From Octopus vulgaris (taxonomy: Eukaryota): a stretch of 64,000 bases of DNA. Where the stretch lies: assembly GCA_951406725.2 (NCBI GenBank), contig OX597822.1, positions 97,650,001-97,714,000 on the forward strand. Reading direction: 5' to 3'. Positions 48,225 to 59,632 of this stretch are shown in pieces. The notes below the pieces were generated by a model that saw only the letters and a program-made list of their open reading frames with translations, made no database searches and was not told the origin of the DNA. Made by a program: the position numbers and the translations under genes. Position 1 is the first letter of the stretch, and every line of letters begins with the position of its first letter.

Positions 48225-49770
48225 CTACCCAACGACAAAGACCTTGTTACACGGTGTTATTGAAATCAGTAAGAAAATGCTCAGAGTATTATAATGTAAT
48301 GAGTACTCACGATTTGGACAACAATATTGTGATGAGTGGCAACCACTAGGATAACATGCCTTTGATGTTCTGGTGTCTGAGATACCACATACTGAAGCAC
48401 ATTGTTGTAAGTTATTTCCATAATCTGTGCAAGAGGCACCTACTTGTCTTCTAGAAATATCTCCACATCTATGTGTGCAGGCAGACCATTGAGTAATTCG
48501 TTTAGAAGAACATTTGTTTGGAGGTTTGCTACGGCCTTTACCCAGCCACCATGTTTGCACCGGTTGGAGACAGACTAAAACAATTATCGTTAGCCATCGA
48601 GTGCTATGCATTGTTTATGAGATAAATAATTCTTTCTTCACACAATTATTTTCTTCAATTTTTGTGCACAATTCAATCCTTTAATAGTTACTGCACCAAA
48701 GTTTGGTATTGAAAGTCATTCCTAGTTGACTTACCCTCTGTAATGGACACTGAAAATCATTTTGCAAAGTGCTTTGAAACATGCTGAGGAACGCAGCAAA
48801 AATCTCATTGGTCAGAGATTAACATTAACTTGAGCCACTAAAAGCTCTTTTAATCAAGGGGGATCAATTCAGTTTTGAGAATATGAATAATAGTTATCTG
48901 AAAAACATTTCACGTTTTTGTTTTCTTTTTGATTGGAATATAGGTTATCAATGTTGTCAACGCCCCAGCGATTAGTTGCTTCATATTACTTGTTGTTGCT
49001 GTGGTGGTGGCTGGGTAGAGGGTAGAAGAGGAAGATGATGATGATTGTATGGGGTGGTCAGACAGAGGGTGATGTAGGAGTGGATAAGGTGTTGGTAGAA
49101 GGTGATCAAGAAGTATATGGGGTAGAGGGTGGCTGTAAAGCAATCTAGTTGGTGGGTAGTGGTTGGTAATAAAGGGCAAAAAGAGGCTCATATGGAGGGT
49201 GAGTAGAAAGCAATACAATAGTGGGTGGGCAAAGTTTAATGTAGTGGGTGGACCGAAGGGTAGCAGGGAGGAAAAAGGTGTTGTAGTGTGTGCGTAGAAT
49301 TAGGGTGACTGCAATTTTGTTAGTGGGTGGAAGGTAGGGAAGTGAATAAATTCCAAGGTAATATCATGTATCCTCAGTTCCAGTGGATATCTGTGGGTTA
49401 ACCTTGCAACAGATTGGGGTACCATCTGTACTAGTGGCAGTTTGTGGGTTAACCTAGCAAGAAATTGGAGTACCCTCAGTATCAGTGGCAGCTGATAGGT
49501 TTACCCTCAGCAGACTACTTTACCCTCACTCCTAGTGGCTGTTGGTAGCTAAAGCCTACAACAGACTGGCATCATCAGTACTAGTGGTAGCTTGGTGAAA
49601 TAGTCTTGCAACGGACTGGCTGTGTGGTTAAGGAGCTCATTTTCCCAACCATGCAGTCATGGTTTCAGTACCACTGCATGGTTCCTTGGGCAACGGTTTT
49701 CTCTTATAGCTCTGGGCTGATCAAATCCTTGTGAATGGATCTGGTACATGGAATCTGAAAGAAGCCCATC
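48225..49770. repeat. Older, more diverged paralog of the triplicated cassette (V5 unit)
   Basis: Colinear with about 59300-60760: exon, upstream aagtcattcc-gttgactta block, G/T-rich tract, ~41-bp minisatellite, SINE head. Confidence 0.88.
48311..48611 (-). CDS. Variable first exon V5, proximal (signal peptide + TSP1-like domain, 100 aa + 1 nt)
   Basis: ATG at 48611; MHSTRWLTIIVLVCLQPVQT signal-like; WSACTHRCG...CCPN; donor C|GTGAGT, phase 1 (301 nt). Confidence 0.9.
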
Positions 49771-50087
49771 ACACACACACACACACACACACACACACAC
49801 ACACACGCACATACACACACACACACTCATGTAAATGTGAAGGCATGTAGCCAAGTGGTTAAGGTGTTCCACTCACAACCGCTAGATTGTGAGTTCAGTT
49901 CCTGGACCAGGTGGTACATTATGTTCTTGAACAAAGTACTTCATTTCACGTTGCTATGCAGGGGGAAGACTGGCAAAATCACTGGCATATTAGCAGAAAA
50001 GCTTTACAATATATTTTCCAGCTCTCTACATTCTGAGCACAAATCCAGCCTGTCTGGAGAAGGTAATAGGAAACCACTCCAGTATTC

Positions 50088-50288
50088 ATATATATATATA
50101 TATATCTATCTATATATATATATATATATATATATATATATATATATATATATATATATATATATATATATATATATATATATATATATATATATATATA
50201 TATATATATATATATATATATATATATATATATATATATATATATATATATATATATATATATATATATATATATATATATATATATA
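50088..50288. repeat. (TA)n microsatellite (also 18815-18913 and many shorter tracts)
   Basis: Directly visible. Confidence 0.97.
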
Positions 50289-50621
50289 GGCGCAATGGCC
50301 TAGTGGTTAGGGCAGCGGACTCGCGGTCGTAGGATCGCGGTTTCGATTCCCAGAGCGGGCGTTGTGAGTGTTTATTGAGCGAAAACACCTAAAAGCTCCA
50401 CAAGGCTCCGGCAGGGGGTGGTGATCCCTGCTGTACTCTTTCACCACTCTTTCTCCCACTCTTTCTTCTGTTGGCCTGCTCGCTTAGCCAGCGGGGTGGC
50501 GTCATCCGAAGGCTAAAACAATGCGAACGCATTGTGACCAGCAATGTGTAACTACATCTGATGGACTGGTCGGTCACGTGATCACTATATATATATCACG
50601 TGATCACGGGATATATATATA

Positions 50622-50914
50622 TAGTAGTTGTATACTGTCAACTCAACGTCCTGTAACAGGAATCACATCACCGCTATTTAGCCCTAAGAAGCATCGATGC
50701 TTCCTATTGGCTTTGACACATGTCCTGTGTCCTTATATTTGCAAAGGGGAGGCAAGCACACCTGCCAGCTAGGATTAGCACCCCTTTGCAAATATAAGGA
50801 CACAGGAAATGTGTCAAAGCTGACAGGAAGCGTCGATGCTTCCTAGGGCTGAATAGCGGTGGTGTGATTCCTTTTACGGGACTGTCACGTTGAGTTGACA
50901 GTATACAACCACTA
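50622..50914. repeat. Foldback inverted repeat, ~125-bp arms
   Basis: tagttgtatactgtcaactcaacg...tttgcaaagggg pairs with cccctttgcaaa...cgttgagttgacagtatacaacca. Confidence 0.9.
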
Positions 50915-56880: not shown

Positions 56881-57491
56881 AAATGACATGGCTGTGTACT
56901 TGAGAAGCATATTTTCCCAATCATGTGACACTTTGGGCAAGTGTCTTCTATTATAACCCTAAGCTGACCAAAATTCTGTGAGTGGATTTGGTAGATGGAA
57001 ACTAAAAACCCATTATGTATATATATATATATATATATATATATATATATATATATATATATATATATATATATATATATATACTTTATTTAAAGCAGCA
57101 GAAAATTCAACAAATCCTGTTACTCATCATAGAACAAATACCACTATGAGTGATGTCCAGACTACAGTGGAGAAGGTGAGCCACAAGATTTGGTTAAAAA
57201 AGAGACTATGAGCAAGAAAGAATATTGAGCGAAACCTAATAACCGGTTGGTCTAGTAAGCAGAGCTTCATTTCAATGAGGGTGGGTGGTTTGCAAAATGA
57301 TGCCACTGAGAGGAAGGCCCCAAAATGGCATATATTCTCTCCTGATGACATCATAAACTTGCCAGCATCTGGTATGCGGAGCTTTCAACTTGTAGCCCTT
57401 GTACTTGCAAGTTGTTTGCAATATATATATATATTGCATCTTCAAGTAGTCTGCAAACAATATAAAAAAATATATAACAGTAAGTACTCAC

Positions 57492-57756
57492 GATTTGGAC
57501 AACAATATTGTGATGAATGGCATCCACTAGGATAACATGGTTTTGATGTTCTGGTGTCTGGGATTCTAAAGACTGGAACACCTGTCTGTGAGTTGTATCT
57601 ATATACTGCGCATTTGGCAATTACGTGTCTTTTAGAGATATCTCCACATCTATGTCTGCAGGCAGACCATGGAGACATTCCTGTGATCATGCACGATGTC
57701 TGCACTGGTTGGAAACAGTATAAAGCAATTATCATTAACCGTAGAATGTTATGCAT
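57492..57756 (-). CDS. Variable first exon V2 (signal peptide + TSP1-like domain, 88 aa + 1 nt)
   Basis: ATG at 57756; open frame to CCPN; donor C|GTGAGT, phase 1 (265 nt); paralogous to V1/V3/V5. Confidence 0.8.
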
Positions 57757-59334
57757 CCTTTATGAAATAAAGAATTTCTTTTGACCAAATTCGTCTGCAC
57801 AATTTAATTCTTTAAGTAATTACTTTGAAATCAAAAGTCATTCCTTGTTGACTTACTCTCTGCAATGGACAGAATGAAAAGTTTTTCGCAAACTGCTTAG
57901 AAATATGACAAGGAATGCAGTGAAAATTTTGTTGGTCAGGAAGTAACAGTTGCTTGAGCCACTAAAGCTCTTTTAATCCTAGATGACCAGTATAGTTTGG
58001 ACAATATCCTGATTAATAGTTCTTTAAAAGATATTTTGTTGTGTTTAGATTCAAGAAATTTATGTTATCAATGTTATCGACATTTCCTTGATTTATATTA
58101 CGTGTTATTGCTGTGGTTTTGGTTGAGTAGAGGGTAGAAATGGGTGAAGATGATGACGACGACAACGACGATAATGATGATGATGATGACAATAATAACG
58201 ACGATGATGATGTGAGAGTGTGGGTGGATGGATAGAGGGTGATGCATGGTTGGGTAAGGGGGTAAGGGGTAAGGTATAGACAGACGGCGCTGTAGAAGTG
58301 AATAGCGTTCACAATCTAGCTATTGGGTGGAAGGTAATGCAGTGAATGCATTTCAGGGTGATGTGGTGTACCCCCAGTACAAAGTGGCTGTTTGTTGGTT
58401 AGCCCATCAAGAAACTGAAATATCCTCAGTTCCAGTGGCAGCTAGTGGGTTAAACTATTAGCAGATTGGTGTACCTTCAGTACCAGTGGAAACTAGTGGG
58501 TTAACCCATCAATAGGCTAGAGTACCCTCAACATCATTAGCAGCTAGTGGGTTAACCTATCAACAAACTGAGGTATTATCAGTACATATGGCAGCTAGTG
58601 GATTTACCTATCAATAGACTGTGTTACCCTTAGTATCAGTGACAAATGAGGATTTCTCCTTCAATAGACTAGTTTACCCTATTTCTAGTGGCTTAACCCT
58701 GCAACAGACTGGTACATCATCAGTACCAGTGGTACCTTGTAAATGACATGGCTGTGTACTTGAGAAGCATATTTTCCCAATCATGTGACACTTTGGGCAA
58801 GTGTCTTCTATTATAACCGTAAGCTGACCAAAATTCTGTGAGTGAATTTGGTAGATGGAAACTAAAAACCCATCATGTATATATGTATATATATATATAT
58901 ATATATATATATATATATATATATATACTTTATTTAAAGCAGCAGAAGATTCAACAAATCCTGTTATTCATCATAGAACAAATACCACTATGAGTGATGT
59001 CCAGACTACAGTGGAGAAGGTGAGCCACTAGATTTGGTTAAAAAAGAGACTATGAGCAAGAAAGAATATTGAGTGAAACCTAATAACCGGTTGGTCTAGT
59101 AAGCAGAGCTTCATTTCAATGAGGGTGGGTGGTTTGCACAATGATGCCACCGAGAGGAAGGCCCCAAAATGGCACACATTCTCTCCTGATGACATCATAA
59201 ACTTGCCAGCATCTGGTATGCGGAACTTTCAACTGGTAGCCTTTGTACTTGCAAGTTGTTTGCAATATATATATATTGCATCTTCAAGTAGTCTGCAAAC
59301 AATATAAAAAAAATATATAACAGTAAGTACTCAC

Positions 59335-59632
59335 GATTTGGACAACAATATTGTGATGAGTGACATCCACTAGGATAACATGATTTTGATGTTCTGGTGT
59401 CTGTGATTCCACAGACTGGAGCACATTTCTGTAAGTTGTCTTTATGATGTGTGCATATGGCAGCTACTTGTCTTTTAGAGATATCTCCACATCTATGTCT
59501 GCAGGCAGACCATGGAGTTATGTTTTTGGCTAGGCATTTGTTTGGAGATTTTTTTTTATTCCAAAGCCACCATGTCTGCACTGGTTGGAAACAGTATAAA
59601 GCAATTATCATTAACCATAGAATGTTATGCAT
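59335..59632 (-). CDS. Variable first exon V1 (signal peptide + TSP1-like Cys-rich domain, 99 aa + 1 nt)
   Basis: ATG at 59632. Hydrophobic N-terminus MHNILWLMIIALYCFQPVQT, then C-x7-WSACRHRCG...CYPSGCHSSQYCCPN. Donor AAT C|GTGAGT at 59335/59334, phase 1 (298 nt). Confidence 0.85.

Follow-up and report, generated by a model that had tools for sequence, protein, structure and literature searches.

The 64,000-nucleotide stretch of Octopus vulgaris DNA analysed here (assembly GCA_951406725.2, contig OX597822.1, positions 97,650,001 to 97,714,000; the window) contains a tandem array of copies of the first coding exon of one gene, followed by a single set of downstream exons. The gene product is, by prediction, a secreted protein of about 3300 amino acids with fibronectin type III (FN3)-like repeats, encoded by a single-copy gene. 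From the sequence we judge it probable, though well short of assured, that these tandem exon-1 copies, V1 to V5, are likely alternative first exons that would give one protein different binding tips, and that a short loop in V2 and V3 has likely been under positive selection. What is observed here is the copies and their order, the single downstream exon set, splice phases that agree, neutral sites that place V5 on the outside of the tree, the absence of V1/V5 conversion and an excess of non-synonymous change on the young branches.

Coordinates refer to the window; every cassette, repeat unit and constant exon lies on the minus strand, and the cassette labels match the numbers used in a first-pass annotation of the same DNA.

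59335-59632, minus strand: V1, an exon-1 copy with ATG, predicted signal peptide, WWL-basic linker and thrombospondin type 1 (TSP1)-like domain; loop at 59396-59470
57492-57756, minus strand: V2, an exon-1 copy with a 33-nt linker deletion; loop at 57553-57627, 15 derived residues
55652-55916, minus strand: V3, an exon-1 copy with the same 33-nt deletion as V2; loop at 55713-55787, 16 derived residues
about 55040-55125, minus strand: V4, the 3' remnant of another exon-1 copy, with a donor that now reads ATAAGT
48311-48611, minus strand: V5, the canonical coding exon 1; loop at 48372-48446
39507-39647, minus strand: exon 2, the first constant exon, located by a splice-site scan; Cys-rich, 141 nt long and in phase 1 at either end

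V1, V2, V3 and V5 each possess their own ATG, a hydrophobic leader and the same phase-1 donor (an exon-final C followed by GTGAGT), and exon 2 is also phase 1. Four intact copies and one remnant stand upstream of single-copy constant exons, which is the layout of a variable-first-exon system; exon 2 occurs once within 204 kb. The mature part of V1 contains 10 Cys. V3 has the full set of 10 and a loop of net acidic charge, V2 has lost both Cys of the loop CxxxC and retains an even number (8), and V4 is missing one Cys of the CC pair and adjoins a repeat fragment. At least four intact exon-1 copies are present in the assembly, all at this locus: protein and DNA searches returned four matches each, counts that are lower bounds, and revealed no hidden donor copy elsewhere in the assembly. 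An assembly artefact is unlikely because V2-type contigs are found in other public runs, including a record of 918 nt from run X4 over 57226-58141, with 18 differing letters, and a record from run X3 over 57628-58078.

At 57676, 57680 and 57688, a span of 13 nt before WSAC, the V2-type contigs of runs X2 and X3 have other bases than the window. All three differences change the residue, two of them match the third-position base of V1, and none is present in X4; this stretch of V2 may still vary between individuals or species. Contig depth in the bin 55810-56160, the 5' part of V3, was 1.0, 5.5 and 1.4 in X2, X3 and X4, against 14, 50 and 6 in the V2 bin, a weak hint of copy-number variation; near-identical units may draw contigs.

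Divergence and probable selection in the loop

The loop is defined as 25 codons (75 nt) starting at QVAAIC in V1. On recounting, V1 and V5 differ at 9 of its residues, V1 and V2 at 15, V1 and V3 at 15, and V2 and V3 at 20, the figures that the first-pass annotation had given. Its other structural observations stand as well: V2 and V3 have in common, relative to V1, the 33-nt in-frame deletion after the signal peptide, V1 and V5 have both retained the WWL-basic linker, and the flanks of V5 are far from those of V1-V3 (86/361, 89/361 and 83/343 sites differ, or 24%). The annotation had regarded the likeness of the older pair V1/V5 as a phylogenetic paradox. There is none, because for four taxa the pairing ((V1,V5),(V2,V3)) and the tree (V5,(V1,(V2,V3))) are identical when unrooted and differ in branch lengths only. 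Flanks, synonymous sites and loop all fit the single tree (V5,(V1,V2,V3)), in which branch lengths alone vary. As read from these alignments, the V1/V5 likeness is shared ancestry, and the supposed paradox is an ordinary case of unequal rates after duplication. At the DNA level the likeness is slight (16/75 nt for V1/V5 vs 18/75 for V1/V2) and it vanishes at synonymous sites.

Non-coding divergence among V1-V3 amounts to 48, 45 and 40 differences per 1459 sites (about 3%). In the loop the same three pairs differ at 18-26 of 75 nt (24-35%; Fisher's exact test against flanks, p from 4e-10 to 3e-19), and none of 5000 shuffles in any of the three pairs gave a 75-nt window reaching the observed loop count. 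Neutral pseudogene decay of V2 and V3 is rejected because of this disparity. The excess is confined to replacement sites: the proportion of synonymous differences (pS) in the loop is 0.03-0.09 for the young pairs (0.5-1.5 of about 17 sites), with a non-synonymous proportion of 0.31-0.43. For V1/V5, loop pS is 0.28 (4.8/17.3), close to the 0.27 of the framework and the 0.24 of the flanks. The annotation's further reading, that V1 retained the ancestral specificity, has only partial support, since the V1 loop has changed too. Six of the 25 V1 loop residues are found neither in V5, nor in P0155 (the Octopus bimaculoides orthologue XP_014775210.2, 3300 aa), nor in P0001 (a V5-type exon from another source), compared with 15 in V2 and 16 in V3.

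Substitution rates were estimated with an MG94 codon model in our own script (not PAML), over 87 codons comprising 20 of the leader and 67 of the core; the 11-13 linker codons were excluded. The annotation's proposal that V2 and V3 evolved fast after duplication is supported, the ratio of non-synonymous to synonymous rates (omega) being 5.9 on V2, V3 and their stem vs 0.54 elsewhere (two-ratio fit, p = 0.0005 against one ratio; likelihood-ratio test against omega = 1, p = 0.002). This apparently adaptive change is concentrated in the variable exons. The loop alone yields an omega of 24 (p = 4e-4), and the 62 framework codons alone give no significant result (p = 0.35). With V1 moved into the fast class omega is 4.4, and omega = 1 is still rejected (p = 0.002). 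The TSP1-like loop of V2 and V3 has likely changed under positive selection. Such selection implies that the copies would have been expressed at some time, either joined to the body of the protein or as short peptides.

Other origins of the loop pattern can be weighed against these figures. The suggestion that gene conversion produced the V1/V5 likeness is hardly credible. It could appeal to the low residue count (9/25) and to the linker in common; a conversion tract between V1 and V5, the event that the annotation had set against its own reading, was looked for and is absent. Conversion is rejected because the flanks are 24% and the synonymous loop sites 28% divergent. Synonymous divergence in the V1/V5 loop (5/17) matches that of the framework (12/44; p = 1.0) and exceeds the V1-V3 flank divergence (p = 2e-4), at seven sites spread along the loop V1, V2 and V3 agree with one another and differ from V5, and across the aligned exon V1 and V5 are never identical for more than 27 nt, a stretch that lies at the conserved 3' end, outside the loop. 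The two linkers have many base differences and differ in length by one codon, and the V1 loop has 6 differences from P0001 but 9 from V5. Conversion is refuted at the resolution of the data; a tract so old that most of the divergence came after it would look the same as common ancestry.

It is improbable, too, that the loops of V1-V3 predate the flanks around them, with conversion making the flanks alike and divergent loops surviving (concerted evolution combined with balancing selection), in which case the speed of change is overestimated. Exchange of this kind is suggested by conflict among polarised flank sites, of which 5 join V2 with V3, 4 join V1 with V3 and 2 join V1 with V2. The flanks therefore do not settle whether V2 and V3 are sisters or in what order the triplication took place, and some exchange among units is likely; moreover, V2 and V3 differ at only 2/126 nt over the signal peptide and pre-loop stretch. 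Old loops, however, would hold synonymous changes, of which there are 0.5-1.5 per young pair over about 17 sites vs about 4.8 in V1/V5. At the V5 rate, the probability of at most 1 change in 18 sites is 0.03 and that of at most 2 is 0.10, although intermediate ages are possible, and the scenario would itself need selection on the loop. Still less plausible is local hypermutation, or a series of multi-nucleotide events, acting without selection. In its favour, 10/87 codons changed at least twice on a young branch and the 18 nt beside the 33-nt deletion hold 10 differences, but the synonymous sites of the loop show no rise, and omega remains above 1 when the 10 multi-hit codons are removed (p = 0.006) and when the codons beside the deletion are additionally left out (p = 0.016).

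Host protein and cassette domain

V5 is taken as the canonical coding exon 1, and V1-V4 as its upstream duplicates, because the start of P0155 matches V5 and runs into exon 2. Residues 1-101 of P0155 are 91% alike to V5 and 72% to V1, and in the model exon 2 follows the V5 orthologue exactly at the predicted CCPN-Q-CSNY junction. Downstream, the gene continues to about G000:C9:97616630, and 22 segments matching P0155 are spread between V5 and a point some 33 kb beyond the left edge of the window. The orthologues XP_014775210.2, XP_036362221.1 (O. sinensis) and CAI9728349.1 (O. vulgaris) agree at 87-100% by exon; two of the three octopus gene models lack a V exon, and each record has one N-terminus. 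Pfam recognizes in P0155 only fn3 and two weak FN3/Ig-like models. No clear transmembrane segment is present in P0155, in which a single 19-residue window exceeds a hydropathy of 1.6, at 1.62. The remaining constant exons of the window are as follows.

37871-37999, minus strand: constant exon, Cys-rich, from tblastn of P0155 and splice sites
30424-30684, minus strand: constant exon, from P0155 tblastn
23818-23964, minus strand: constant exon, from P0155 tblastn
21716-22390, minus strand: constant exon that occurs once in the genome and supplied the search query (taken as 21710-22387)
about 18021-18548, 15029-16222, 10275-11666, 6058-6759, 4867-4995 and 1786-2109, minus strand: six more constant exons, from P0155 tblastn, with fn3 matches

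The domain carried by the cassettes is best described as TSP1-like, not proven TSP1. As in TSP1 domains of the spondin-like kind, all four intact cassettes have the motif W-x-x-C-x-x-x-C-G (WSACRHRCG or WSACTHRCG) followed by basic residues (KR or RR). They differ from TSP1 by an inserted C-x9-C-x3-C loop and a shortened EGF-like tail, and by the tryptophans: a WxxW ladder is a feature of TSP1, and the cassettes have one Trp at that place. Several relatives from molluscs and a hemichordate possess TSP1 and EGF-like modules at the same position, two of them with the same inserted C..C...C loop, and Pfam TSP_1 is found in the relative P0081. A 13-row profile (A2) matches thrombospondin-1 at 2e-10, a result that is partly circular because 7 of its 13 rows were selected by a TSP1-like motif; a 4-row profile (A1) found no TSP1. 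The Atlas matches to TSP1 clusters, the best at 0.89 and the others below it, serve as a lead only.

The family was delineated with the query exon, which produced 184 matches, 150 of them listed, over 1.84 billion representatives. The top cluster consists of octopus proteins, including XP_014775210.2, and the named relatives among the matches listed come from bivalves, abalone, Saccoglossus and Sycon, a range from sponge to molluscs. Pfam was run on 44 proteins, namely P0155 and the 43 of the 150 listed hits with N-terminal sequence. WSC, SUEL lectin, C-type lectin, EMI, VWA, LDLRb, HYR and TSP1 each occur in one member, sushi in 2 and EGF-type repeats in several, and 14 contain no family at E 0.001. 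What the relatives have in common is the query domain, frequently together with a Cys-rich region; the N-terminal modules ahead of them differ. Given this diversity of binding modules in the relatives, the N-terminal slot of the family is likely a binding module.

The query domain also stands beside a protein kinase in 9 of the 44 proteins and beside GPS and 7tm_2 in 1; it is therefore used in receptor ectodomains elsewhere. The bivalve pairs P0011/P0092, P0015/P0176 and P0044/P0181 have neighbouring accession numbers and lie on equally long contigs, a hint of tandem whole-gene arrays, vs the single octopus gene with a duplicated exon 1. Protein searches with V1 (among proteins of 176-2000 aa) and with the query exon (397-2000 aa) had no matches, the full-length orthologues, at more than 3000 aa, being beyond that range. 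In the literature searched, mostly without subscription journals and supplements, we found neither this gene, also under its accessions, nor any comparable cephalopod or mollusc array described. Expanded clustered protocadherin genes have been described in octopus, and the passages available to us do not mention this gene (PMC6339937; PMC7811963).

A proposed role as alternative first exons

The following course of events may be proposed. Exon 1, together with about 1.1 kb of 5' flank, would have been duplicated long ago (about 25% neutral divergence) to give the ancestor of V1-V3; a V5-like 5' flank of about 1.1 kb does precede each of V1-V3. Unequal crossing-over would then have tripled the 1.85-kb unit of the upstream copy (about 3% divergence). 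In V2 and V3 the basic linker presumably disappeared and the loop would have changed under selection for new binding properties; V1-V3, used as alternative first exons, could equip one scaffold with different binding tips. Patterns of this sort are usually driven by a partner that itself changes quickly, for instance the surface of a microbe or gamete. In its fullest form the proposal is more tentative, and we hold it somewhat less probable than even: a newborn, independently evolved cephalopod first-exon system of protocadherin style, only about 3% neutral divergence old and set in an ancient, unstudied family that exchanges its N-terminal binding modules, in which separate promoters would pick V1, V2, V3 or V5 and place adaptive TSP1-like tips on an FN3-like scaffold of about 3200 residues, likely for immune or gamete recognition.

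Several observations weigh against alternative first exons under selection. No transcript joining V1, V2 or V3 to exon 2 was seen among the records examined, and the V5-exon 2 join is itself known only from the P0155 gene model. Contigs of four public runs compared with V1-V4 gave no splice joint among the matches listed, a comparison swamped by repeats and uninformative on expression. The intact frames and donors of V1-V3 carry little weight because neutral divergence is only 3%, and V4 is already dead. The synonymous changes that enter the selection test are few (0.5-1.5 over about 17 loop sites), a simple Fisher comparison of non-synonymous and synonymous differences in the three young pairs gives p = 0.03, 0.13 and 0.013, and the foreground branches and the loop were picked post hoc, after the data had been viewed. 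That V2 has lost two conserved Cys could also reflect decay that followed an adaptive phase. As to the domain, Pfam assigns no family to any of the four cassettes, and the predicted fold of A1 has a confidence (pLDDT) of 43.

The most serious competitor, though an unlikely one, is that V1-V3 are adaptive without being spliced to the body of the protein, and that read-through of the donor yields, or formerly yielded (the copies now being silent), short secreted TSP1-like peptides. Beyond the donor the frames of V1, V2 and V3 stay open for 46, 16 and 46 extra residues, P0001-P0003 from public contigs are V5-type read-through forms (possibly derived from DNA), and no V1-V3 junction appears in the records examined. 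Yet the tail of V2 differs in length from those of V1 and V3, the tails are AT-rich and resemble intron, V1-V3 have undamaged donors whose phase fits exon 2, and the V5 orthologue is annotated as spliced. Alternative first exons are the reading that we prefer.

Known systems of variable first exons help to place the octopus locus. As in the clustered protocadherins, UGT1, GCNT2 and UGT2A of vertebrates, tandem paralogous first exons precede one constant set. The variable exons of UGT1 are reported to evolve by birth and death and to contain positively selected hypervariable sites (PMC1885805), and the octopus locus is similar in both respects, with birth and death of variable exons and apparent positive selection in the variable part. 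It bears no sequence relation to these clusters and has just four intact cassettes, three of them very young. Its variable part makes up about 3% of a protein that is predicted to be secreted and is neither a membrane receptor nor an enzyme, and its separate promoters and the splicing of V1-V3 are putative. No cadherin repeats, glycosyltransferase domain or Ig array with a transmembrane segment is present to place it in the protocadherin, UGT or Dscam families. An invertebrate counterpart exists in chelicerate sDscam, where cassettes arrayed in tandem at the 5' end, each preceded by upstream sequence of its own as in octopus, have their own promoters and are joined to constant exons (PMC4835542). 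The sDscam cassettes comprise two or four exons that encode Ig domains, and their promoter activity has been shown (PMC4835542), whereas the octopus cassettes are single exons with a TSP1-like domain and without a transmembrane segment.

The pattern singles out the loop of 25 residues as what is likely the binding surface in a family of proteins of about 3300 aa, found from sponge to molluscs, that is without a described function in the literature covered by our search. Four natural variants on one scaffold would make a direct hunt for ligands possible. If V1-V3 are spliced, the locus would be a mollusc example, at a very early stage, of the first-exon layout of vertebrates and chelicerates, and the birth of such a cluster could be tested there. 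Beyond that, the interest lies in a strong adaptive signal in the likely binding loop of an unstudied giant protein, whose exon layout could be that of a newborn variable-first-exon cluster.

Repeat units and neighbouring sequence

The cassettes V1-V3 are embedded in units of about 1.85 kb, and the flank of V5 is homologous to their 5' part.

58935-60790, minus strand: triplicated unit 1, about 1.85 kb, comprising a 5' flank with 51-nt minisatellite, V1 and the start of the intron
57090-58875, minus strand: triplicated unit 2, containing V2
55285-57010, minus strand: triplicated unit 3, containing V3, with a private 21-nt deletion upstream
48612-49700, minus strand: 5' flank of V5, matched by some 1.1 kb of homologous sequence ahead of V1-V3

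The 51-nt minisatellite lies 700-1000 nt upstream of every exon-1 copy (49331-49540, 56522-56930, 58368-58790 and 60274-60680), and has fewer units ahead of V5. A GTAAGT sits about 100-125 nt before the ATG in V2 (about 57858), V3 (about 56018) and V5 (about 48736); it reads TTAAGT in V1 (about 59733). This motif may be a donor of the 5' untranslated region; a shared acceptor for it was looked for and not found.

The intron between V5 and exon 2 contains, at about 41000-44200 on the plus strand, broken frames resembling a long terminal repeat (LTR) retrotransposon, with protease, reverse transcriptase, RNase H and integrase-like motifs recognized by eye. The public gene model P0154 begins inside these frames (43695-43534) and not at a V exon, which is likely an annotation error. 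Further along the contig, at about G000:C9:97584300-97589500, long minus-strand frames resemble, again by eye, the Rep/helicase of Helitron elements.

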